From Escherichia phage HH3, in sequence record PP759150: a DNA stretch of 44,661 bases. One strand, 5' to 3'. The notes under the pieces were generated by a model. That model saw only the letters and a program-made list of their open reading frames with translations, did no database searches and was not told the origin of the DNA. A program made the position numbers and the translations under genes. Shown here piece by piece: positions 782-37,612 of this stretch (positions within the stretch are counted from its first letter, which is position 1; each line of letters begins with the position of its first letter).

Positions 782-921
782 CACCAGCACTAATGGCGGG
801 ATTCTCGCAGAAGTTTATTTCTGTTGATGCCTGCATAGCAGATTATGAGATAGACGGCATCGCTACTGTGTGCGATGGCGACACGAAAACTGCCGATGAG
901 ATTGAGGAGACAGAACAATGA
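778..921 (+). CDS. small hypothetical protein (47 aa)
   Basis: Hand-translated; ATGA overlaps with both neighbours (778 and 918) suggest translational coupling; not in ORF track because under 60 aa. Confidence 0.3.
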   Translation: MTPALMAGFSQKFISVDACIADYEIDGIATVCDGDTKTADEIEETEQ

Positions 922-1448
922 AATTACTATTCCGCCGCAAATCAGACGGTTATATCCTAAAGCCGATCCAGGCCCTGACTAAGCATGTGCGCCTGCAGCA
1001 TGTCGCAAGTGATCGGGTCTGGCGGGCGACAAAAGCAAGGATGCCGGAAGACTACGAGATTCTCACGCATGATATTGAGCGCGGCGATGTGCTGCGTGAT
1101 ATCCGCGACGGTAGTATGTGGATCGTGGAGTATGTCGGGCCGCACGCGTTGCGTATGCAAAACCGCAAGGATGGCGTAGCCGGTATGACTTACTTCGGCC
1201 TCGTAAATTACGAGCGAGTGGGTCGCAAATACAGCCTTCGGGGCCGCCAGCCGCATGAGCGAGCGAACACCTACGACGCCCACCAGGTGCAGGCGAAGAT
1301 GAAACGCGCCGCACACGAAATCATCAATCGCTTTGACGCCGTGACGAATGCACAGCGCCATGCGCAGGAATACGGCGTTGGATTCATCCGGGTAGAACGA
1401 GACGGCAGCATGAAAGCCATCGACCCGCGCTCGGTGATTCTGAAATGA
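918..1448 (+). CDS. hypothetical protein (176 aa)
   Basis: ORF, RBS gaggagacagaacaATG. Confidence 0.55.
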   Translation: MKLLFRRKSDGYILKPIQALTKHVRLQHVASDRVWRATKARMPEDYEILTHDIERGDVLRDIRDGSMWIVEYVGPHALRMQNRKDGVAGMTYFGLVNYERVGRKYSLRGRQPHERANTYDAHQVQAKMKRAAHEIINRFDAVTNAQRHAQEYGVGFIRVERDGSMKAIDPRSVILK

Positions 1449-1532
1449 ATAAATTCGATTTAGTGCGGGATAAATTAACCCGCGATTTGTATCTGGTTGT
1501 AGCCGTAACCCATTACCAGGTTAAACTACGTA

Positions 1533-1736
1533 ATGTGGCTACTAAGCAAGCGCACTGGGCACCACGCCATAACCCACATCTGGAGGTCGTATCCCGTGTC
1601 GGCTGTGATTCGTGATTTGTTGGTGTATAACCGCTTTGAGATAGGCGGTCGGGTATTTCGCAATTACTTCGTGGCGCGTGCATGGGCGCGCCATATTGGC
1701 AAACCGGAAGGGGCAATTAGATGTTACACGATGTGA
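1533..1736 (+). CDS. hypothetical protein (67 aa)
   Basis: ORF overlapping start of next gene by 16 nt; weak support. Confidence 0.3.
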   Translation: MWLLSKRTGHHAITHIWRSYPVSAVIRDLLVYNRFEIGGRVFRNYFVARAWARHIGKPEGAIRCYTM

Positions 1737-2008
1737 TTTATTGGTTTGGTTTGATCTGCGGGCTGTGCCTGCTTACAGCGGTGCTGTTGGGCGTCCTGAT
1801 GTTCGTAGTGTGGCCCGCCGTGGAAGCCGCCAGCATTACCCGCATGACGTTCGAGATATACAAGCGCCGTGGAATCACGGAGCACCCGCCCCGGCTTCGG
1901 ATGTGGTGGCTGTGGTATCGGGATATGATAGGCGGTCGAACATTCGAAGCCGTCCGATCATCCGGGTGGGAGTGGAAAGGCGTCGGCAAGTGGTCCATTT
2001 TCGATTAA
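1721..2008 (+). CDS. small membrane protein (95 aa, one N-terminal transmembrane segment)
   Basis: Hydrophobic stretch WFGLICGLCLLTAVLLGVLMFVVWPAV. Confidence 0.5.
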   Translation: MLHDVIYWFGLICGLCLLTAVLLGVLMFVVWPAVEAASITRMTFEIYKRRGITEHPPRLRMWWLWYRDMIGGRTFEAVRSSGWEWKGVGKWSIFD

Positions 2009-2060
2009 TTATGCAAGCGTGATATAGTCCCAGTGAGATAAAACTTACTGGGACTTTTTT

Positions 2061-2351
2061 ATGGATAAGCTAAACGAGTGGCTATTCGCCCTGGCATGTC
2101 TGGCGGGTGGCTTCGTAGGCGCACGCATTCATGGCGATGCTACGAAGGGGCCGCTAAACTTCGTTTTGTATGTCGTAGTTGGCTTCCTGTGTGCCATATT
2201 TGGCGCACCGGCTATTGCCGAGTGGGCTGGTTTGTCGGGGGAGCGCACTGTCGCCGGTTTGGGCTTCGTAACCGCAATCTTCTGGATGCCAATCGCCGAC
2301 CGGATCAGGGAGACTATTGCGTCGTTCCGACTTCCGGGAGGTGCAAAATGA
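2061..2351 (+). CDS. holin-like membrane protein (96 aa)
   Basis: Two to three hydrophobic segments; immediately upstream of the endolysin; ATGA overlap with next gene. Confidence 0.6.
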   Translation: MDKLNEWLFALACLAGGFVGARIHGDATKGPLNFVLYVVVGFLCAIFGAPAIAEWAGLSGERTVAGLGFVTAIFWMPIADRIRETIASFRLPGGAK

Positions 2352-2593
2352 TTATCTCCGTCCTGTTGTTTGTTATCATCGGGGCTTCGTCCCTGTTTAA
2401 CGTGTATGCGCCGTCCGTCCAGGATGGCATTTTCGGTCGGGTGCTGTATCTGCTAACGGCAATGGTCTGTATTATCGGATTGTTGCAAACAGGAGACGTA
2501 TCTGATACCACCTGGACCGCGTTAATCTGGCTGTTTGCATTGCGCACCCTGCGTAATGCTGTTTTGAATGAGGTAAAACATGCGATTCAGTGA
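2348..2593 (+). CDS. small membrane protein, holin or antiholin partner (81 aa)
   Basis: Strong RBS gggagg; two hydrophobic segments; C-terminal part of track ORF 2078-2593, which I consider N-terminally over-extended. Confidence 0.5.
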   Translation: MIISVLLFVIIGASSLFNVYAPSVQDGIFGRVLYLLTAMVCIIGLLQTGDVSDTTWTALIWLFALRTLRNAVLNEVKHAIQ

Positions 2594-3071
2594 CAACGGT
2601 CTAAGATTCACGGCAGCATGGGAGGCTTTCAGCCCGGTGCCGTATTTCGCGACCAAGAAAGAGCAGGCCCGCGGCCTGTACACCTGGGGTTATGGTCATA
2701 CAGGCACTAATCCGCCTCGAAGCATTACCCGCGAGGAAGCGCTGGCACTGCTCAAGCGCGATGTGGCGTATGCCGAGGCTTGGGTGAACAAATACGCGCA
2801 TAAGAGCATTAACCAGGCGCAATTCGACGCGCTGGTGGACCTGGTAATCAACGCCGGTCCTGGCCCGATCGTACCGGATGACGTCGCCGGTGACTTCGAC
2901 GATGCTGTCCGCCTGGGTGACTGGGCAAAAGTCCGGGCTACACTGCCACAATTCCGCAAGCAAGGCGGGGAAGTGCTTAAGGGTCTGGTACGCCGTGCAA
3001 TCGGCAGACAGGCGTTATTTGATGGTAAGCAGTGGGACGTTGCCGAGCGAATCGGTCGTAACGCTGCATAA
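2580..3071 (+). CDS. endolysin, glycoside hydrolase family 24 (T4-lysozyme-like)
   Basis: Motif region ...KKEQARGLYTWGYGHTG... matches the GH24 lysozyme catalytic-region pattern; follows holin-like genes. Confidence 0.8.
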   Translation: MRFSDNGLRFTAAWEAFSPVPYFATKKEQARGLYTWGYGHTGTNPPRSITREEALALLKRDVAYAEAWVNKYAHKSINQAQFDALVDLVINAGPGPIVPDDVAGDFDDAVRLGDWAKVRATLPQFRKQGGEVLKGLVRRAIGRQALFDGKQWDVAERIGRNAA

Positions 3072-3087
3072 TACGAGGTGACACGAT

Positions 3088-3255
3088 ATGTTAAAAAGTA
3101 TTCTTGATCATAATGCGGACGCGCTTGCCGCACTGGCTAAAACCGAAGACCCAGGCGCACGCGCTATCATCGCGGACACTATCAACCACGCTGGGGTCTT
3201 TGATGCGAAGCTGCCAAGCCCACCACCGCCGGAAGAACCCGGCCCCGAAGCGTAA
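3088..3255 (+). CDS. small hypothetical protein (55 aa, Pro-rich C-terminus)
   Basis: Hand-translated ORF with RBS gaggtg; below ORF-track size cutoff. Confidence 0.3.
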   Translation: MLKSILDHNADALAALAKTEDPGARAIIADTINHAGVFDAKLPSPPPPEEPGPEA

Positions 3256-3262
3256 ACAATCA

Positions 3263-3286
3263 AGCCCGGTTAATTCCGGGCTTTTT
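3263..3286 (+). terminator. rho-independent terminator
   Basis: agcccgg-ttaatt-ccgggct followed by TTTTT. Confidence 0.7.
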
Positions 3287-3327
3287 ATTGCTTGACTTGC
3301 AACCAACCAACAAGAGGAGTAATCAAG

Positions 3328-3486
3328 ATGGCACGTAAAGATGTTTGGGTATTGGCAATCTGGACCACCGCGGCTTTTATCGGCATGGTTATTTGCGAAT
3401 TGATATTGCCCGCCGCCATATGGACCGTGGTATATTGTCCACGGTCCACTAATCAGGAATTAATTAAATATGCACCCGCAAACTAA
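3328..3486 (+). CDS. small membrane protein (52 aa)
   Basis: RBS agaggag 8 nt upstream of ATG at 3328; hydrophobic core VWVLAIWTTAAFIGMVICELILPAAIWTVVY; 9-mer motif at 3299-3306 just upstream. Confidence 0.45.
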   Translation: MARKDVWVLAIWTTAAFIGMVICELILPAAIWTVVYCPRSTNQELIKYAPAN

Positions 3487-4612
3487 AATTACCGATGAGC
3501 AATTGATCGCAGAAATTCAGGCAGGGACTACGGTTAAAGAGATTGCGAAGAAATACGGCATTGCACTTCGAAATGTCTATATGCGCAAAGCCCGCCTATC
3601 GAAAAAGGGAATTGGTCACGGTAATGATGCCGTGATCCGTAAGCGAGTTGCAGATGGCTTCGGGGTTAAACGCGTGTCTGCCCTGGTGCGCGGTAATGGC
3701 GAAGAGGTCATGTCGTGGGTCATCACTGAGCAGGATAAGGAGCGCCAACTCGAAGCCATGCGCGCTGTGGTCGAGGGTATGAACAGCGAAATCACACCGG
3801 CAGCGCCCGTAAACGCCCCATGCCAGTATACCCAGGCGCTCGACTTGCTCAACCTGTACACTGTGTCCGACTTCCACCTGGGTATGCTGGCATGGGGCGA
3901 GGAGACTGGAGAAGATTGGGATATGGCGATCGCCGAAGACCTGTTCTACCGCTGGTTTGTCGAAGCCTTCGCACGCGCACCAGACGCAGGCACTGCCGTG
4001 ATCAACATCCTCGGGGATATGGCCCACTTTGATAGTCTCGATGCCGTCACCCCTGCCAGCGGGCACGTATTGGACGCCGACACCCGGTACCAGAAGTTGG
4101 TCCGCTACATGATTCGCATGGTGCGCAACGTCGTAGAACTTGCGCTGCAAAAACACTACAAAGTCAAACTGCTAATCGTCCAGGGTAATCATGACGAATC
4201 CGGTATGATTTGGCTTGCTGAGATGTTCAATACCTTGTATGAGAACGAGCCGCGCGTCGATGTGGACACGTCCCCGGACGTCTACAAAATGGTGCAGCAC
4301 GGTAAGACTACGCTATTTTTCCACCACGGGCACAAAGCGCGATTCGATGTTATCGAGCAGGTTATGATCGCTAAATTCAGACAGGCGTTCGGGGCGAGCG
4401 AATACAGCTACGCGCACGTAGGCCATTTGCACCACCAGAAGATTGTTGAATCCCGCAACATGATTGTTGAACAGCACCGGACGCTCGCAGCGAAAGACGC
4501 CTACGCCAGTCGTGGCGGTTGGATGTCCGGTCGCAGCGCAAACGTCATCACCTATAGCGCCAACTACGGAGAAGTAGCGCGCTTAACCATTAGCCCGGAA
4601 ATGTTGAAATGA
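3470..4612 (+). CDS. HTH domain fused to calcineurin-like metallophosphoesterase (Mre11/SbcD-like motif set), 380 aa
   Basis: N-terminal HTH-like TTVKEIAKKYGIALRNVY; phosphoesterase motifs SDFHLG, GDMAHFD, GNHDE, GHLHH in canonical order. Confidence 0.6.
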   Translation: MHPQTKITDEQLIAEIQAGTTVKEIAKKYGIALRNVYMRKARLSKKGIGHGNDAVIRKRVADGFGVKRVSALVRGNGEEVMSWVITEQDKERQLEAMRAVVEGMNSEITPAAPVNAPCQYTQALDLLNLYTVSDFHLGMLAWGEETGEDWDMAIAEDLFYRWFVEAFARAPDAGTAVINILGDMAHFDSLDAVTPASGHVLDADTRYQKLVRYMIRMVRNVVELALQKHYKVKLLIVQGNHDESGMIWLAEMFNTLYENEPRVDVDTSPDVYKMVQHGKTTLFFHHGHKARFDVIEQVMIAKFRQAFGASEYSYAHVGHLHHQKIVESRNMIVEQHRTLAAKDAYASRGGWMSGRSANVITYSANYGEVARLTISPEMLK

Positions 4613-29623: not shown

Positions 29624-30133
29624 TTATTTAAGTGCGCCAGTCACCAGTGTTTTTTCCATGTTACGGAAATCTTCCTGCGTCATGCAGATTTTCGATCCGT
29701 CTTCACCGGTTAGCACGACCATAGGCTGGACGTCCTGGGCTACAACTCCAAAATTGGCGGCTGTAACCGTTTTACCGGGGGTAAATGCGCCGCCTGTTTT
29801 GACGGGCCAACCTTTGAGGCTATCGAATTGTGCTGCCGTTGTATCGATCTGAATCTCGTCATGCACGGTCATGTAAGACTCGCCCAGCAGGGCGGCATAC
29901 GCCACCAGATCCACGATGTTATCTTCCTGGTGCTTACGGTGCTGGCGCACCAGCTTCAGGCAGATCAGGAAGGTCCAGGCTTCTTGCTCGGTAAGGTCGC
30001 GCCCGGTAAGCGCGTTAAACACGGCAGCGATTTGTTTAGCGCTGCGTTCTTCTTTCGCGTTGTCATAGCCGTTTTCTTTCCCGCGCTGTTCCATAGTGGT
30101 GGCGGCGTTTTTGCAGTATTCGTATGCTTTCAC
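29624..30133 (-). CDS. hypothetical protein (start uncertain, GTG 30133 or ATG 30094)
   Basis: Track ORF runs to 30214 but would read through the palindromic operator and hairpin; trimmed. Confidence 0.4.
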   Translation of the reverse strand: MKAYEYCKNAATTMEQRGKENGYDNAKEERSAKQIAAVFNALTGRDLTEQEAWTFLICLKLVRQHRKHQEDNIVDLVAYAALLGESYMTVHDEIQIDTTAAQFDSLKGWPVKTGGAFTPGKTVTAANFGVVAQDVQPMVVLTGEDGSKICMTQEDFRNMEKTLVTGALK

Positions 30134-30191
30134 AGTATTACCCTTTTTTTTTAGCGAGGGGGCGGTATTGCCCCCGACACGTTTACTATAG

Positions 30192-30213
30192 TGCAACCAA
30201 CCTATTGGTTGCA
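30192..30213. promoter_or_regulatory. Perfect palindrome TGCAACCAA-ccta-TTGGTTGCA (full dyad of the recurrent 9-mer)
   Basis: Read directly; overlaps the last codons of the HAD-like gene and precedes the next minus gene; followed by hairpin 30156-30178. Confidence 0.7.
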
Positions 30214-30672
30214 AGTGAATTTTGCAACGTTTATTGCGTAAATTTTCGGGACCAAATCACCACACGCCCGACGAATTGCCGCGATGTTCTTCTCGCAATC
30301 TTCAATGATGACCAGTTCAGACACGTCCGCGTAACATACCATTTTGAACACGGCGCACGCTTTAAACTCTGGCGGCGGGGTGTCGTCCAGCATGTGGCGC
30401 ATAAACAACCTGCCTACCGGGAAGACCTCCAATTGCTCGGCGGTGGTGTCCCAACATTCTCGCTGCCGGTTGGTCAGATACGCGATCTCGAAGCCTTGCT
30501 CTTTATACATGCGCAGTAGCGGCAGCATATCCATGTTAAGGTCTTCGCGGACGTGCGCTTTGTGCCACTTCGCCCAGAAGGTGGATTTAGTTTTTATGCC
30601 CGGCACCAGGTCGGCACGCGCATCGCTTGACCCATTAATAACGCCATCCAGATCACAAATCAGTAATTTCAT
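30202..30672 (-). CDS. HAD-superfamily hydrolase (phosphatase-like), 156 aa
   Basis: N-terminal motif LLICDLDGVI (HAD motif I DxDG). Confidence 0.65.
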   Translation of the reverse strand: MKLLICDLDGVINGSSDARADLVPGIKTKSTFWAKWHKAHVREDLNMDMLPLLRMYKEQGFEIAYLTNRQRECWDTTAEQLEVFPVGRLFMRHMLDDTPPPEFKACAVFKMVCYADVSELVIIEDCEKNIAAIRRACGDLVPKIYAINVAKFTCNQ

Positions 30673-30893
30673 TTCAATTCCTCAATAAGGGTGTATCGGG
30701 CGCTGCGCGCGGTTAAGGAGTTGCACACGAAATGGCAACGCCGAGTCATGACAAGCCAACCGGTGAGGTCAAGGCCCAGGATGTATTCGGGGCGAGACGC
30801 GCGCACCACACGATTGCGTCGCGGGTCGATGTTATAGTCTCTTAGCATTTGGTCTACGACCGCGGGGTCGCGGTCAACGATTAAGATATTCAT
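30669..30893 (-). CDS. hypothetical protein (74 aa)
   Basis: ORF, ATGA coupling with the HAD gene. Confidence 0.4.
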   Translation of the reverse strand: MNILIVDRDPAVVDQMLRDYNIDPRRNRVVRASRPEYILGLDLTGWLVMTRRCHFVCNSLTARSARYTLIEELK

Positions 30894-31359
30894 GTAACTC
30901 ACTCTCGCTCATTATTTCAATTTGTGCGCTGCCGATGGGCGGCGCTTCGTCAAATATTATTAATTGCTGGCACTTGTTATTGCTCGGACCGACTTCGCCG
31001 GTGGCGGCGTGAATGAATCTAATCCGCCAGTCCAGAAGAATTATCATATTGGCGGTATTCCGGGCCAGCTTCGCCCACTTAGTCGACGTGTCCTGATTCA
31101 GTAGCATGACGGTCCGGCGTCCGTGCGCTGCGCACTCGACCCACGGCAGCGGATCGGAATACGGCGGATTGCACCACTTCCACCCTTTCAACTCTGCCCA
31201 GTCCACATCAAGCGCGCTGTGCTCTGCCGTGAAGTAACGCGGTAGAAGGTGGTTGGCGTCGCTTGCCGCCATATCGTAACGGAATCGGTATTTCCGACGA
31301 AGCGGTTTAAATAACGCTGGCGGCGTGCGCCAGCTATCTTTTTGCTCATTCTTCGTCAT
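30874..31359 (-). CDS. DNA N6-adenine methyltransferase (phage Dam-type), 161 aa
   Basis: Catalytic motif NPPY in WKWCNPPYSDPLPW; N-terminal WRTPPALF pattern typical of small phage Dam enzymes. Confidence 0.8.
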   Translation of the reverse strand: MTKNEQKDSWRTPPALFKPLRRKYRFRYDMAASDANHLLPRYFTAEHSALDVDWAELKGWKWCNPPYSDPLPWVECAAHGRRTVMLLNQDTSTKWAKLARNTANMIILLDWRIRFIHAATGEVGPSNNKCQQLIIFDEAPPIGSAQIEIMSESELHEYLNR

Positions 31360-31804
31360 GGTCGGGGGCTATCGCGTACAGGGCGATATTGTTGCCTTTC
31401 TTCAGGACCCGCTGCACGCGCTTTGACTCCTCGGCGCTCATAGGGCGACCATGAAAATAGCCATTTGTGGGATTGCGCCACGCCACAAGCACCAGATCTT
31501 TACGGTCGATCTTAGACTGGCTACCCTTCGGACGCACGTACTCCTCGGCCCGTTTGCAATGCTCGCGCAGACCTTCGGCAGTGATGCGGTTTAGCGAGAC
31601 GGTGGTGGTGTATCCGGTGCGCTGCATAATACCCATCAATTTGAAAAGCAGTTCGAAGCGCTCCTCTAGCTCCTTGCGCATCTTTTCCTCGCCTTCATAG
31701 CTCGCCAGGTAGGTATCCGCCAACGCGTTCGCCCGTTCGGCTTGCTCGCGGGCTTCGAGGCATTGCGCGGCCCAGTAATCTTTTTCTTCTTGTAAAATTT
31801 TCAT
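31346..31804 (-). CDS. hypothetical protein (152 aa)
   Basis: ORF in replication block. Confidence 0.5.
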   Translation of the reverse strand: MKILQEEKDYWAAQCLEAREQAERANALADTYLASYEGEEKMRKELEERFELLFKLMGIMQRTGYTTTVSLNRITAEGLREHCKRAEEYVRPKGSQSKIDRKDLVLVAWRNPTNGYFHGRPMSAEESKRVQRVLKKGNNIALYAIAPDHDEE

Positions 31805-32047
31805 TTATTTAATCTCCGTAGTGCGAATCTCTTTGCGTGGGATAAATTTGCCGTCCATCTCCACCCAACAGACTCCGTATCGCCATTGGGTGTTACGACC
31901 TGTTTGCTCGGCGTACACGGTCTTGCATCCGTAGCGTTCCGTGTAGTAAATAGCTGCGGTAGGTACGCAAACACAAACGGCAATCATGAGGGTGAGTATC
32001 ACCCAAAATCTAAGGTCGCCGTCGTAGTCAAAAAATAATGATTTCAT
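31805..32047 (-). CDS. small membrane protein (80 aa)
   Basis: RBS ggagac; hydrophobic segment FWVILTLMIAVCVCVPTAAIYY. Confidence 0.5.
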   Translation of the reverse strand: MKSLFFDYDGDLRFWVILTLMIAVCVCVPTAAIYYTERYGCKTVYAEQTGRNTQWRYGVCWVEMDGKFIPRKEIRTTEIK

Positions 32048-32065
32048 CGTTATGTCTCCAGGTAT

Positions 32066-32091
32066 TAAAAAGGGCGTCCAACCGGACACCC
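32066..32091 (-). terminator. rho-independent terminator (minus strand)
   Basis: Minus-sense gggtgtcc-ggtt-ggacgccc followed by TTTTT; 9-mer motif at 32101-32109 immediately upstream. Confidence 0.6.
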
Positions 32092-32110
32092 TCAATATAA
32101 TGCAACCAAT

Positions 32111-32434
32111 TTACGCATAAAAGTTAGGGTCGCGCGCTACGTCTACCAGATACAGGTTACTAATGCGGTTGCCGTAGTGGCCTGGTGTGCGCTGACGGCA
32201 CACTACGGCATAGCCTGGAGGGATTGTATTGCCAGTCTCAATAATCCACGCCACGCGTGCGCCAGACAGCGTCTTACCGTTGTATTCGATACGTGTTCCG
32301 CCATCGGCAGTGTTAAGGTTGCCAATCTTGCAGCCTGTGGACTTCAGGCGAATGACGCCGGTCTTGCTGTCGTATGAAAAAAGCTGATTGGTCATTGCCA
32401 CTGAAAAGTCGATGGCGTCGAATGTAGTATTCAT
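32111..32434 (-). CDS. HNH_3-like small protein (107 aa), possibly degenerate homing-endonuclease-like
   Basis: Pattern YNGKTLSGARVAWIIETGNTIPPGYAV...PGHYGNRISNLYLV resembles HNH_3 endonucleases but the canonical DH-NG core is altered. Confidence 0.45.
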   Translation of the reverse strand: MNTTFDAIDFSVAMTNQLFSYDSKTGVIRLKSTGCKIGNLNTADGGTRIEYNGKTLSGARVAWIIETGNTIPPGYAVVCRQRTPGHYGNRISNLYLVDVARDPNFYA

Positions 32435-33141
32435 TTTAAATTTTCCTCGTTAACCGCTATCGCGAAGCCGCGCGGGGTGAGTGAGCGGATTAATTTTGTA
32501 CGAGCGGATTTACCACCGAGGCGACTATACTGTTTCGAGTACCCTTTTTCAACGAAAACAGGTTTCTTCTCTGGCATACGGAAGCCGTTGCCGGTCCATA
32601 AGCAGGTCAGCTTCGGATATGAATCGCGGGCGTTGATGTATTCAGGGAATAACGGGTGTACGTCATCCTCTGGCAAATAGCCGCCATACTCCCACGGGTC
32701 AAACGAGTGGTCCGGCTTACGCCATTGAGTGGAGAGCACGCTGCGCGGATTCTCAATCATATATGGCACTTCGAAGAAATCGCCCAGGTAAGCGGCGATC
32801 TTCGCGGTGCGCACCGCCTTAAGCTGGAAGGCAGGGTCGCGGGCGCGTTTGCGCGGGAAAGCTGGCGCGCCGCTCACCGCCAGATCAGTACACGGCGGGA
32901 ATGCATAGATAATATCCGGCGTGCCGAAGTCGCCATTCATCGCGCGGTCCACGAAGTCCAGGTCAATAAACTCATTGCGATATCGGATACCGCGACCATA
33001 GATACGGTAATCAAGGTAAGACCCGTGATCGGCTTCGGAGTAGTTGAAGCAATAACACTTATGCCCCATCTCGGCAGCACGCTCAATCATCAAGCCGCTG
33101 CCGTCAAACAATGACCAGATTGTCATTTTAGCAATAGTCAT
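32431..33141 (-). CDS. compact DNA C5-cytosine methyltransferase-like protein (236 aa) with variant motifs
   Basis: Motifs in C5-MTase order: I SLFDGSG, IV FPPCTD (PC-T instead of PC-Q), VI ENP (instead of ENV), VIII-like QWRKP; about 100 aa shorter than typical C5 MTases. Confidence 0.55.
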   Translation of the reverse strand: MTIAKMTIWSLFDGSGLMIERAAEMGHKCYCFNYSEADHGSYLDYRIYGRGIRYRNEFIDLDFVDRAMNGDFGTPDIIYAFPPCTDLAVSGAPAFPRKRARDPAFQLKAVRTAKIAAYLGDFFEVPYMIENPRSVLSTQWRKPDHSFDPWEYGGYLPEDDVHPLFPEYINARDSYPKLTCLWTGNGFRMPEKKPVFVEKGYSKQYSRLGGKSARTKLIRSLTPRGFAIAVNEENLK

Positions 33142-34562
33142 TTGCGCGCCTTTTTAGCTTTCATGTACTCCATCAAGTCGTCCTGTATATCTCGCTTACT
33201 GTCGCGACGCTCGGCGACCAGTTCGTCCAGTGTCCCGCGCGCCTGGATAATATAGACGAATACTGGACGGGGGTGTCCGGCTTGCATCTGGCGAACCGGC
33301 CCGATACGCTCCACGATCTGCGAAAAGTGCTCAAAGTTCCAGGTGTCTGAGAAGATAGCAAGGTGGTGTCCGCCGTCCTGCAGGTTGAGGCCGTGGCCCG
33401 CCGATGCCGGGTGCGCAAACATGATGGGGATCTCGCCCCTGTTCCACGCTTCCATATCCTTATTGCCCTGCTTGCCCTTGCCCAACGCAACGCCGTGCGG
33501 GAATTTCTTCTTGAGACGCGCCAGATCATGCTTGTACTGGTACGCGACGAGCAACGGTGCGCCGTTCAACTCCTCCACGATACTTTCCAGCGCGTCCAGT
33601 TTAGCGTCGTGAATTTTCACCCATTCGTCGGTCCGTTCGCCGTCTTCGTCGACCTTATACACGGCCCCGGAAGCAAGCTGAAGGCACTTAATGGTCTTCG
33701 AAGCAGCGTTCGCCGCCTCCACCGTTCCGCTTTCCAGTTCGGCAAATAGCTCCGCTTCGAACTGGTCATAAATCTTGCGGGCTTTCTTCGGCAGGTCCAC
33801 TACAACCGGCGTATAGATTGGCTTGTCACATCCGAAGTATTCAGCCGCATCAACGGTGAGCGACACGTCGGACAGGCGTTGTTGTATTTCTTTCTCGGAG
33901 TTCTTAAGCGGGGCGTGCTGCATAGAAAAGCTGCCAGGCTTAACAGGCTTGCTAATAAACCAGCGATCCGTGAATGCCTTATAACTACTGCCGAGACGTT
34001 CGCCGCCATCGACAAACCACGTCTGACCCCACAGGTCTTTCAGTCCGTTTGGTGCGGGTGTGCCGGTGAGGTTAATCCATCGCTTGACGTGCTTATGGGC
34101 AATCGCCGCCAGTGCGCGGGCGCGCTTACTCCCCTGCTTGCTTCTATAGCCTTTCAGCTTAGTGGATTCATCGGCAACAACGACCGTAAAGGGCCACGCA
34201 TCGCCGTAATAGTCAACCAGCCACTCAACTACATCATAGTTAACACAAACCACGTTAGCGTCGCTCTCGAGAGCAGCAATGCGGTCCTTCTCTGGTCCTG
34301 TGCCGTCTACTACCAGCAGGGCGGGGAAGCGCCATTTCTCCTGCTCCGGGGGCCATGTACCGGACGCAACGCGCAGCGGGGCCAGCACCAGTACGCGGTC
34401 CTCCTGGTTGGACAGGATACCAGTCTGGAACATTTTATTCAGTGCCCACATGGTCGCGCCAGTTTTACCCGACCCCATTGTCGCCCATATATTGCATCGC
34501 TTATGCTTGAGGATGAACGCGGTTATCAACTTCTGATATTCGCGACGTCGGAAACGTGCCAT
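33138..34562 (-). CDS. SNF2/DEAD-like superfamily 2 helicase (about 474 aa; start at ATG 34562)
   Basis: Walker A MGSGKTGAT, DExx-like VVADEST, C-terminal helicase domain; track ORF over-extended to 34652. Confidence 0.75.
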   Translation of the reverse strand: MARFRRREYQKLITAFILKHKRCNIWATMGSGKTGATMWALNKMFQTGILSNQEDRVLVLAPLRVASGTWPPEQEKWRFPALLVVDGTGPEKDRIAALESDANVVCVNYDVVEWLVDYYGDAWPFTVVVADESTKLKGYRSKQGSKRARALAAIAHKHVKRWINLTGTPAPNGLKDLWGQTWFVDGGERLGSSYKAFTDRWFISKPVKPGSFSMQHAPLKNSEKEIQQRLSDVSLTVDAAEYFGCDKPIYTPVVVDLPKKARKIYDQFEAELFAELESGTVEAANAASKTIKCLQLASGAVYKVDEDGERTDEWVKIHDAKLDALESIVEELNGAPLLVAYQYKHDLARLKKKFPHGVALGKGKQGNKDMEAWNRGEIPIMFAHPASAGHGLNLQDGGHHLAIFSDTWNFEHFSQIVERIGPVRQMQAGHPRPVFVYIIQARGTLDELVAERRDSKRDIQDDLMEYMKAKKARK

Positions 34563-34566
34563 ATCT

Positions 34567-34785
34567 TTATTCCGCCTTTTTCCAGACTTCTGTCTCACTG
34601 TTCCAGTTCCTTTTTGTGGCGTCGTAGTTGGTGCGGTGACCGATGTGCACACCCGTCGCCCGGAAGCTCTTAAATTTTTGCCAGCACACCGTTAACGGCA
34701 GCGGGTTATTCATGCCTGCGATAAACCATACGCGATCGCCTGGTTTGCATTCGCCCAGTGTGGTGAGTCGATAATGTTCTTTCAT
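34567..34785 (-). CDS. hypothetical protein (72 aa)
   Basis: RBS gggaga 9 nt upstream of ATG 34785. Confidence 0.4.
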   Translation of the reverse strand: MKEHYRLTTLGECKPGDRVWFIAGMNNPLPLTVCWQKFKSFRATGVHIGHRTNYDATKRNWNSETEVWKKAE

Positions 34786-35042: not shown

Positions 35043-35321
35043 TTAAGCGACCAATTCAGCAACCAATAAATCACAGTCGGCTATGTTGTCTATGACGCGA
35101 ACGTCCGCACCGCGGCGGGCCATTCGCTCATGTTCTCGTACCTGGTGCGGCTTCGGTTTGCCACCGGGGCGCTTCACCTCGACGAACACTATTCTGCCGT
35201 TGATGATGATTATCAGGTCTGGCGCACCTGCTCGCCCCTCCCACGCCACTTTGCGGCAGAATCCGCCGACGGCTTTCACCCGTCTCATCAAGTGACTTTG
35301 AATCTTGCCTTCGGGTGTCAT
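35043..35321 (-). CDS. VRR-NUC domain nuclease (92 aa)
   Basis: GAPDLIII ... VFVEVKRPGGKPKPHQ motif; start overlaps the Pol I stop. Confidence 0.7.
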   Translation of the reverse strand: MTPEGKIQSHLMRRVKAVGGFCRKVAWEGRAGAPDLIIIINGRIVFVEVKRPGGKPKPHQVREHERMARRGADVRVIDNIADCDLLVAELVA

Positions 35322-37612
35322 TATTTTCTGTACCTGTACATAATGTCGCCTTCCGCGGCAAGCGGGAAGCCTTTCGCCCAAACCGGCAGGTCGCACATCA
35401 GCGCGCACAACTCCTCAGTTGTGTAGTCGTCGGTATCCGGCACTTCGGTTATCAGTTCATCGTGTACGGACAGTACGATCTCATATCCCGCAGCTTCAAC
35501 GCCAGGCATGGACCATGCGAGGATATCGCGACACAGCGCCTGCACGATGTTCTCTGTCAGTTTGCCGCCGTAGGTGTACTGGGATCCCCACTGGCGCGTC
35601 GTCTGATTCTCACCCTGGTATTTAATGCGGGTGCTGGTGCGTTTCTTGCCGGTGTCGTCGTCGATCTCGGTCGTCACTGACAGCGCAATGCCTGGATAAC
35701 TCATAATACGCCCAGACGGCAACTCAATTTTCAACCACCACCCCGCGGCGTTCGGGTCGTCGCGTTCCTCGTCGAAGGTTGGGTCATGCTTCGCCTTCGT
35801 GCGGACTATCTTGAGCGCTTTCTTTCCATCCGGGCGAACGTTCGCTCCAGCCCAGTACGCTTTGCCCGGATTGCGGATTGCACACAACACCGCGTCCTCA
35901 AGCTCGGCCCAAAAAGCTACCGTCTTCGGGTGAGCCTCGCGCCACATGCGTTTAATCGCATCACACGTAAGCCATACGTTTTTCGGCAGTATGTAAGTCG
36001 GACGCTCGTCCTTCTTGCCCGGCTTCGGCGGGCGCTTAGCTTCGTTAATGCGGGCATACTCATAACCACGTTTCGCCGCGGCCCAAATGTGATCGGGGAA
36101 TGTGCCCTTCATCACGTCAGCCATCGCATAAAGGTCGAGGCCCAGGTTTTTAGCGAACTGCAAGAACGCCGCCACGCCGCCGCCATAGCCTAGTCCCAAC
36201 TCACACGCCTTACCGATCTGGCGTAAGTCTTTGCGGTTGGCTTTAATGTATTCCGGATCGAGGCCGAACATCTTACCGGCAGTCTCACAATAAATATCGC
36301 GACCGGCCCTAAACACCATTAGCGCGGTTTTCTCTCCAGCGATCCAGGCGAGGCCACGCCCTTCCACGTTGGAGTAGTCCGCCACGACAAACTTCTTACC
36401 CTTCGCCGGAATAATGCACCCGCGAACAGTCGAGGCTGTTAGCTTCGATATGTCATACGCCCAGTGCGCTGTCCCGCGTAACAGGGAGTTGATGCCGTTG
36501 GTGAGCATGTGCGACCGGACCCAAAAAGAAACGTCGCTCTCGCCTTCACGGCGTTTAATCTTCCCTTCGTGGTCATCACTATACTCGCCGCGTGCCAGGT
36601 TTTGCGGCTGGAAGCCTTTACCAGCCCAGCGCAGCGTGCGCTTTGCCCCACCATACTGAAGACAACCACGGCGGCGACCATCGGAAGACAGGCCATTTAC
36701 GAGCGGATTGTACTTAGTCGATGCCGTTGATGATGCCCCGAGGCGCATCTCGATAAGCACTTTGCCTTCGTCTGGGAAGTCCGGGTCTTCCAGCAGGTCG
36801 TTAAGTGTGGACTTCTGCGCGTTGTGGATCGTGAACGCAGGCGCGAGGTCGCGCAGCGCGGGCAAGAAGTCATTGCCGGTCAGCTTACCGCCGAAGCGCT
36901 CCCAGGCTTCTTCCTTCAATTCTTCTTTATGCGCCTGTACCGCTTTGATCGCGGCGTTCGCCAGATCAACGTCCACGTAGAAGCCGCGGTCGTTGATCAA
37001 CTGGTCAATAAGCAGGATTTCGTCTTCCTTCGGCGTGTTGCCCCAGTCCGGTATGCGCCAATAGACTTCCCTCATAGCGATGATATCCAACGCGGCATAG
37101 CGAAGGAATTTAGCCCACTCCTCTGGGTGCGTCTCGCGCGTGTAGCGGCGGATTTTGTAGGTCTTAGGGGTAGGCTTACAGAATCGTTTGATCAGCGCCT
37201 TGCCCGCCTTATCCTTCGCGTGCTCTGCATCAACGCCCAACACCTGACACTGCATATCGAGGCCGCCCGGCAACGCGTGCCGAAAGGCCATAATCATGGT
37301 GTCTTCGATCTGGCACACGGGGAGGTCAATGCCCCACTTCTCGCGAATAACCAGGCGGTCAAACAGGAGGCCGTTAGCCATCACGATTTTTGCTTTCTTG
37401 CGGGATACCCGGCGGAGCGCCTTGCGCAGTTCACGCGGCATTGTGGGGGACTCGGTGCAATCCCACGTTTGCACGCGGCCCTCGTCGATGGCGTATGTGC
37501 AAATCATAATCTCAGTAGTTGGGTGTTCCGCGTAGGCGTATGCGCCCACTTTCTTCAGATCCACCCCGCTAAATGTCTCGGTATCGAGAAACAGGCGTTC
37601 AAAGTCTTTCAT
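35321..37612 (-). CDS. DNA polymerase I (family A) with 3'-5' exonuclease domain, 763 aa
   Basis: Exo I motif FLDTET near N-terminus; C-terminal motif C region SVHDELI; size. Confidence 0.9.
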   Translation of the reverse strand: MKDFERLFLDTETFSGVDLKKVGAYAYAEHPTTEIMICTYAIDEGRVQTWDCTESPTMPRELRKALRRVSRKKAKIVMANGLLFDRLVIREKWGIDLPVCQIEDTMIMAFRHALPGGLDMQCQVLGVDAEHAKDKAGKALIKRFCKPTPKTYKIRRYTRETHPEEWAKFLRYAALDIIAMREVYWRIPDWGNTPKEDEILLIDQLINDRGFYVDVDLANAAIKAVQAHKEELKEEAWERFGGKLTGNDFLPALRDLAPAFTIHNAQKSTLNDLLEDPDFPDEGKVLIEMRLGASSTASTKYNPLVNGLSSDGRRRGCLQYGGAKRTLRWAGKGFQPQNLARGEYSDDHEGKIKRREGESDVSFWVRSHMLTNGINSLLRGTAHWAYDISKLTASTVRGCIIPAKGKKFVVADYSNVEGRGLAWIAGEKTALMVFRAGRDIYCETAGKMFGLDPEYIKANRKDLRQIGKACELGLGYGGGVAAFLQFAKNLGLDLYAMADVMKGTFPDHIWAAAKRGYEYARINEAKRPPKPGKKDERPTYILPKNVWLTCDAIKRMWREAHPKTVAFWAELEDAVLCAIRNPGKAYWAGANVRPDGKKALKIVRTKAKHDPTFDEERDDPNAAGWWLKIELPSGRIMSYPGIALSVTTEIDDDTGKKRTSTRIKYQGENQTTRQWGSQYTYGGKLTENIVQALCRDILAWSMPGVEAAGYEIVLSVHDELITEVPDTDDYTTEELCALMCDLPVWAKGFPLAAEGDIMYRYRK

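Follow-up and report, generated by a model that had tools for sequence, protein, structure and literature searches.

Escherichia phage HH3 very likely encodes two active orphan DNA methyltransferases, a compact DNMT3-like cytosine enzyme and a phage Dam

Escherichia phage HH3 (sequence record PP759150) was analysed as a single stretch of 44,661 nucleotides, referred to here as the window, and this report concerns two putative DNA methyltransferase genes on its minus strand together with the small HNH-like gene that lies beside one of them. We consider it very likely that this region encodes two active orphan S-adenosylmethionine (SAM)-dependent DNA methyltransferases, namely a compact DNMT3-like C5-cytosine enzyme of 236 amino acids (aa) and a phage Dam of 161 aa, and the sequences suggest that the phage very probably methylates both adenine and cytosine. 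The HH3 DNA is the complete genome of a Dhillonvirus-type coliphage (44.7 kb, ~54% G+C, zero tRNA genes). The three open reading frames (ORFs) of an original prediction, made from the sequence alone, were all found on the minus strand, at 30874-31359, 32431-33141 and 32111-32434. The two candidate methyltransferase genes are:

30874..31359, minus strand: predicted phage Dam-family N6-adenine DNA methyltransferase, 161 aa (Pfam PF05869, E 1.4e-36)
32431..33141, minus strand: predicted compact Dcm-like C5-cytosine DNA methyltransferase, 236 aa (PHROG 757, E 7.3e-84)

The 161-aa protein matches the Pfam Dam model PF05869 at 126.2 bits (cut-off 28.1), which upholds the original Dam-type call with its NPPY motif; the catalytic motif reads W-C-N-P-P-Y-S, with NPPY at N64-Y67. 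Further matches were obtained to PHROG 111 'DNA methyltransferase' (1.9e-54) and to the PADLOC orphan methyltransferase (2.8e-11). The protein is 30% identical to the Dam of phage KarlJaspers, with the NPPY motifs aligned, and 40% identical to the Dam of Edwardsiella phage eiAU-183. We predict from these matches that the gene encodes a Dam-family N6-adenine methyltransferase, with GATC, by analogy with the family, as the most likely target. The phage Dam family PF05869 includes the Dam enzymes of T1, VT2/933W and HP1, all of which are GATC-specific. GATC sites are adenine-methylated in T1 and TLS DNA (PMC11447400).

The 236-aa protein belongs to PHROG 757 'DNA methyltransferase' and carries, in order, F12-D-G-S-G16, F-P-P-C84-T85-D-L and I-E130-N-P132, followed by a conserved Y175-x-K177 and then a C-terminal R219-S-L-T-P-R-G-F-A helix region. 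By hhalign, FDGSG, FPPCT and IENP align with E. coli Dcm at its motifs I, IV and VI. Against human DNMT3A (E 1.9e-4; the sequence used is identical to PDB 2qrv_A), SLFD and FPPCTDLAVSG fall on DNMT3A SLFD and GGSPCNDLSIVN (motifs I and IV). The claim that C5-methyltransferase motifs I, IV, VI and VIII occur in the correct order thus stands for the first three; motif VIII, which was not confirmed by any alignment, is a tentative assignment. A global hhalign alignment against DNMT3A to place motifs VIII-X was meaningless, and pairwise global alignments with DNMT3A gave a weak correspondence of 'RLGGKS...IRSL' with 'RLLGRS...IRHL'.

Homologues of the 236-aa protein number 2873 at E <= 0.001 among 90%-identity clusters, or 817 clusters at 50% identity, and members of the PHROG 757 type are found in Dhillonvirus, Drexlerviridae, large Salmonella/Escherichia myoviruses and others. 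Conservation was examined in an alignment of 60 diverse relatives, 34-54% identical to the query. C84, G91, E130, P132, P149, Y175, K177, W182 and P190 are invariant in 60/60 relatives, T85 is near-invariant and N131 is kept in 57/60. The original prediction was right that the protein has PC-T instead of PC-Q and ENP instead of ENV; because C84, E130 and P132 occur in every relative, and T85 and N131 in nearly every one, these variants are the signature of the whole compact phage family and no peculiarity of HH3. Motif IV of DNMT3A/B is PC-N-D-L-S, similar to the PC-T of the HH3 protein, so Gln is not obligatory directly after Pro-Cys.

A confident AlphaFold2 model of the 236-aa protein, built from a 25-sequence alignment (pLDDT 89.1, pTM 0.88), has a class I methyltransferase fold that is most like solved C5-cytosine methyltransferases. 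An unrelated fold, which had been considered beforehand as a possible outcome, was not what was found: among the matches listed by Foldseek against the PDB, the first 50 are without exception DNMT3A/B/C (best E 8.5e-8), and the viral structure neighbours of the model carry cytosine methylase names. Only ~28 residues (185-212) lie between strand 179-184 and the C-terminal helices. The target-recognition region is minimal in this model, in agreement with the earlier reading of the protein as having almost none. PADLOC models gave no match to the 236-aa protein, and only structure and the PHROGs were informative for its identity.

One relative of this protein has been studied by experiment. The 236-aa protein aligns over 234/236 residues with bas06_0055 of phage KarlJaspers (MZ501090), annotated as 'Dcm-like C5 cytosine methyltransferase' (54% identity, E 2e-86), which is also 236 aa long and matches PHROG 757 at 6.2e-86. 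The genome of phage K42 is reported to be 95.4% identical to that of KarlJaspers/Bas06. Mutations in K42 escape mutants all disrupt, or sit just upstream of, the 711-bp dcm gene, and expression of this gene is toxic only with retron Ec86 present (bioRxiv 10.1101/2023.08.16.553469, cited later as the Ec86 study, e.g. by PMC12916289). Liquid chromatography-mass spectrometry (LC-MS) of multicopy single-stranded DNA (msDNA) found 5-methylcytosine (5mC) to be high with wild-type K42 Dcm and low with the C82A/E128A/K175A/K176A mutant or the empty vector, the mutated residues having been chosen via an AlphaFold model aligned to DNMT3A (bioRxiv 10.1101/2023.08.16.553469). K42 residues C82, E128 and K175 correspond to C84, E130 and K177 in HH3. 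Because its homology to the K42/KarlJaspers Dcm is full-length, the HH3 protein belongs to a family with demonstrated 5mC formation. For HH3 itself the evidence consists of family membership, a modelled fold, retention of the catalytic residues, and purifying selection, and the rise in 5mC was seen only in the 54%-identical relative.

Selection was assessed by dN/dS (the ratio of nonsynonymous to synonymous substitution rates; Nei-Gojobori) with 9-11 Dhillonvirus relatives. Values were 0.00-0.05 for the Dcm-like gene, 0.015-0.037 for the DNA polymerase I gene, 0.02-0.08 for the SNF2 helicase gene, 0.02-0.085 for the HNH-like gene and 0.06-0.145 for the Dam gene; a gene for a 152-aa protein in the same region evolves faster than its neighbours (0.09-0.31). 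Purifying selection on the Dcm-like gene is as strong as on the DNA polymerase gene. The Dcm-like protein is 97-100% identical across Dhillonvirus loci, where the genomes share ~90% nucleotide identity. Several relatives have a Dcm-like protein 100% identical to that of HH3 in genomes of only ~91-92% nucleotide identity, which suggests that the gene is strongly constrained or was recently exchanged among Dhillonviruses.

Several results weigh against the assignment of two active enzymes with these targets. The 161-aa Dam reaches 86.3 bits on TIGR01712, under the equivalog cut-off of 97.05, and is therefore a somewhat divergent family member. For the 236-aa protein, no match to Pfam PF00145 was found at E up to 0.1 (2/60 relatives reach E ~0.004), an NCBIfam scan gave no match, and phmmer/profile searches of PDB sequences returned only M.HaeIII at E ~0.6. 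The motif II position, acidic (D) in 56/60 relatives, is N33 in HH3, and K176 of K42, one of the four mutated residues, is replaced by L178 in HH3; just 24/60 relatives have K at this position. That the family targets CCWGG is an assumption, and methylated positions were never mapped; for K42 Dcm this target was taken from host Dcm and is supported only by the msDNA CCTGG mutation (bioRxiv 10.1101/2023.08.16.553469).

A footprint of 5mC deamination was sought by mapping 19 Dhillonvirus genomes or loci on HH3 and scoring C-to-T changes at 3- to 5-mer contexts, with and without codon-position correction. Host Vsr repairs the mismatch that arises by deamination of 5mC in CCWGG. The scan, which also counts against the assignment, found no C-to-T excess at the inner C of CCWGG (z 0.57 for CCTGG and -2.5 for CCAGG), a result of low power from 19 relatives and one that Vsr may mask. 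The top C-to-T contexts were codon effects, e.g. at CTN leucine codons.

By the mechanism that we propose, Cys84 would attack C6 of a flipped-out cytosine, Glu130 would protonate N3, and the methyl group of SAM would be transferred to C5 to give 5mC, with CCWGG as the most likely cytosine target, as assumed for the K42 relative. For Dam, the NPPY motif would serve in the methylation of adenine at N6, with GATC as the most likely site. Both enzymes would act post-replication on phage DNA, and progeny genomes would carry host-like Dam and Dcm marks regardless of the methylation state of the host. The enzymes would presumably benefit the phage by shielding its DNA from methylation-sensitive nucleases of the EcoRII or MboI type, or from MutH.

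The original prediction took the purpose of adenine and cytosine modification to be anti-restriction. Support was found for both types of enzyme, and an anti-restriction purpose is plausible but narrow. In BASEL, Dhillonvirus phages showed comparatively high sensitivity to restriction systems of types I and II, and methyltransferase genes had no simple link to restriction resistance in related Drexlerviridae (PMC8594841); therefore any anti-restriction benefit is limited to nucleases blocked by Dam/Dcm methylation. It is possible, as a secondary reading, that the enzymes are active and that their main role is not anti-restriction at all, serving instead to avoid MutH nicking, to time replication or packaging, or to regulate genes. 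Both of the BASEL results fit such a role (PMC8594841), as do the unavoided GATC and CCWGG sites and the position of both genes in a replication operon, between helicase and phosphatase genes and next to polymerase I. These roles are conjectural, however, and EcoRII-like and MboI-like enzymes were outside the BASEL panel, which leaves room for narrow anti-restriction. Mismatch-repair avoidance and replication control are equally open as roles. HH3 has 161 GATC and 151 CCWGG sites, near Markov expectation and with no avoidance, and these counts are therefore uninformative on function.

We regard it as unlikely that the cytosine enzyme, while an active C5 methyltransferase, has a target other than CCWGG, whether a shorter or different motif or a more promiscuous preference. 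Such a target would suit a recognition region of only ~28 residues and closest folds that are short-motif DNMT3 enzymes. It would also be compatible with CCWGG sites that lack a 5mC deamination footprint, and with a K42 study that inferred CCWGG and left methylated positions unmapped; moreover, a phage enzyme that duplicated Dcm specificity would add little in dcm+ hosts such as K-12, the routine isolation hosts of these phages. Mutation of the msDNA CCTGG, however, abolished Ec86 defence against K42, the 3- to 5-mer scan gave no alternative palindromic motif with C-to-T excess, and conservation along the full protein is so high as to suggest a single, fixed specificity. A literature search yielded no methylome data on phages of Dhillonvirus or Drexlerviridae. 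More broadly, we doubt that the compact enzyme is something other than a simple copy of host Dcm, by virtue of another or shorter motif, of the HNH-like protein serving as a DNA-recognition partner in Dhillonvirus, or, less likely still, of the transfer of a non-methyl group.

Altered chemistry, one of the options that had been raised for the PC-T and ENP variants, is very improbable. It would have the enzyme add a non-methyl group to C5, e.g. a carboxymethyl group from carboxy-SAM (Cx-SAM; E. coli CmoA), as CmoX does. In phage CmoX, which forms 5-carboxymethylcytosine with Cx-SAM as the donor, selection of Cx-SAM depends on an Arg equivalent in position to M.HhaI Asn304; M.MpeI N374K also accepts Cx-SAM (PMC12783734). 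Beyond this precedent for the use of Cx-SAM, the unusual variants in motifs IV and VI could be read in its favour, as could the weak pairwise alignment that sets K211 ('LGGKS') opposite 'GRS' in motif X of DNMT3A, an alignment by which K211 could fill the M.HhaI Asn304 position. But K211 is kept in only 27/60 relatives, and the DNMT3A residue opposite is itself Arg, yet DNMT3A is an ordinary methyltransferase. Further, 5mC was detected by LC-MS for the K42 relative, which is 54% identical; the variant residues are family hallmarks and motif IV of DNMT3A/B is similar; the family has FPPC, not the SPPC that defines CmoX candidates; and neither cmoA nor a ligase gene was seen near the 236-aa gene.

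Scarcely credible for the 236-aa protein is the other option raised, a paralogue that has lost catalysis and does no more than bind DNA or another protein: the absent Pfam match, the replacement of Q by T in motif IV and of V by P in motif VI, and N33 at motif II could suggest it, but the catalytic Cys and Glu are invariant (60/60 relatives), dN/dS is as low as for DNA polymerase (0.00-0.05), and the K42 quadruple mutant, which includes the catalytic Cys and Glu, stops raising 5mC.

The two candidate methyltransferases lie in a region that is part of the Dhillonvirus replication and DNA-metabolism operon. A nucleotide search with HH3 30000-34700 matched 163 phage records, of which 152 cover >=80% of the query; nearly all are from Dhillonvirus phages of Escherichia/Shigella. 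Identity is highest, at 90-92%, for Kenya-K19, EC115, EK99P-1, SSL-2009a, welsh and Oekolampad/Bas18. Genes follow one another in the direction of transcription as SNF2 helicase, 236-aa protein, 107-aa protein, small ORF, 152-aa protein, 161-aa Dam, 77-aa protein and HAD-type phosphatase, and besides the methyltransferase genes the following features were annotated:

33138..34652, minus strand: SNF2-family DNA helicase gene (Pfam SNF2-rel_dom 6.5e-11; PHROG 62 2e-157)
32111..32434, minus strand: HNH_3-like protein, 107 aa (PHROG 99 1.4e-16)
31805..32095, minus strand: small ORF, start uncertain (PHROG 18961 4.6e-53 over residues 17-96)
31346..31804, minus strand: 152-aa protein (PHROG 10530 1.1e-90; without a Pfam domain)

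The helicase gene lies directly upstream of the 236-aa gene in one operon, its stop and the following start forming an ATGA overlap, and the helicase to Dcm-like order is common to all Dhillonvirus loci compared. A second ATGA overlap joins the 236-aa stop to the 107-aa start, and these two genes are translationally coupled. Two matches to the compact enzyme in BFVD, A0A6J5SE15 (1397 aa) and A0A6J5NPY6 (1126 aa), both from uncultured phages, have a compact methyltransferase-like fold inside very large proteins at 22-25% identity, and one of the two is named Helicase/UvrB N-terminal; in HH3, by contrast, helicase and compact methyltransferase are separate, translationally coupled genes. The small ORF at 31805..32095 is annotated at ~243 bp in relatives (Oekolampad annotation). 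The stop of the 152-aa gene falls 14 nt within the Dam gene. A 'DNA ligase' label (PHROG 10530) for the 152-aa protein was rejected as not credible, the protein being without a Pfam domain and far too small, and the label is probably a propagated misannotation; a related record says of the homologue 'Possible DNA ligase but no evidence'.

The 107-aa gene was first described as lying immediately upstream of the cytosine methyltransferase gene and coupled to it. The ATGA coupling is there, but in the direction of transcription the gene is downstream. Its HNH_3-like character is supported by PHROG 99 'HNH endonuclease' and not by Pfam HNH_3, on which the protein scores 13.7 bits against a cut-off of 24.8. 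After 'PPGYAVV', inspection finds C79-R80 where HNH_3 proteins have Asp-His and where the eiAU-183 homologue has Cys-Ile; a C...GHY...NL pattern is common to the HH3 protein and that homologue. On this comparison the 107-aa protein appears, plausibly, to be a degenerate HNH protein without the catalytic histidine. Its AlphaFold model was unusable (pLDDT 47), and a large protein search returned only 5 close clusters. The gene occurs in 161 phage records, with an identity of >=80% in 157 and of ~40% in the other four, which are from Edwardsiella phages. It keeps a constant position, and its 161 records compare with 163 that match the DNA of the locus. The gene behaves as a conserved core gene and not as a mobile homing endonuclease.

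An obligate partnership of the HNH-like protein with the methyltransferase was considered and rejected. No HNH-like gene was found beside the PHROG 757 genes in KarlJaspers and 17 other loci outside Dhillonvirus, and K42 Dcm acts when expressed alone (bioRxiv 10.1101/2023.08.16.553469). Nothing links the gene to the reaction, and the 107-aa protein is a conserved, probably non-catalytic neighbour that is not required for methylation. In eiAU-183 the order (852-4382 of the locus) is helicase, HNH-like gene, canonical PF00145 C5 methyltransferase and PF05869 Dam. The C5 methyltransferase there (330 aa, PHROG 363) comes after the HNH-like gene, whereas the HH3 Dcm-like gene precedes it. Because the HNH-like gene of eiAU-183 stands beside a canonical enzyme, the neighbourhood is older than the compact enzyme, and the cytosine enzyme appears to have been exchanged for a non-orthologous one in an otherwise conserved module.

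Three other genes nearby carry labels or features of note. A 196-aa protein (29624-30214, minus strand) has DUF6378 and PHROG matches labelled 'phosphofructokinase', a label that looks unreliable, as does the PHROG label 'polynucleotide kinase' for the HAD-family phosphatase (30202-30672, minus strand). A 121-aa ORF (35043-35408, minus strand; sequence …GAPDLIIIINGRIVFVEVKRPGGKP…), located between the genes for the helicase and for DNA polymerase I, by eye resembles what we take to be a VRR-NUC-type nuclease.

The methyltransferase pair and the HNH-like gene are already annotated in public records, so the finding is already known and of little importance as a discovery: many Dhillonvirus records annotate the genes, and one experimental study of the family exists. 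Oekolampad/Bas18 annotates the HNH-like gene as a putative homing endonuclease. The 236-aa orthologue is annotated as 'hypothetical protein' in OQ291023.1 (Kenya-K19), ON210136.1 (EC115) and several other records, because the family is without a Pfam or NCBIfam model; a large phage family of 2873 homologues that is invisible to both resources is an annotation gap. By homology, HH3 should be sensed by retron Ec86 (Eco1) via its Dcm-like enzyme, which would then be a liability for a phage facing this retron and bears on host-range prediction.

Among known systems, the catalytic domains of DNMT3A and DNMT3B are the closest solved structures to the HH3 236-aa protein, at only 13-17% identity; the phage enzyme differs in having no regulatory domains, an even shorter recognition region and ENP where DNMT3 has ENV. 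With E. coli Dcm and the classical C5 enzymes (PF00145; M.HhaI, M.HaeIII) it shares the fold and the order of motifs I, IV and VI, and with Dcm presumably the product and possibly the CCWGG site. Unlike these it is compact (236 aa versus 472 aa for Dcm), has PC-T and ENP in place of PC-Q and ENV, a minimal recognition region and no significant PF00145 match. CmoX (PDB 8yf3) is set apart by an SPPC motif, Arg350 and a usual location beside cmoA and a ligase gene (PMC12783734), none of which was seen in HH3. The 161-aa protein shares with the phage Dam family PF05869 the NPPY motif and a small size without a separate recognition domain, and differs from the TIGR01712 equivalogs in scoring under their cut-off. 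The K42/KarlJaspers Dcm, trigger of retron Ec86/Eco1, has the same length as the HH3 enzyme, the same PHROG 757 assignment and the same mutated C, E and K residues; KarlJaspers is a phage of Drexlerviridae/Hanrivervirus with other gene neighbours, whereas HH3 is a Dhillonvirus. In Oekolampad/Bas18, bas18_0036 'Dcm-like C5 cytosine methyltransferase' and bas18_0032 'Dam-like N6-adenine methyltransferase' are the orthologues of the HH3 pair, with 99% and 95% protein identity and in the same order.

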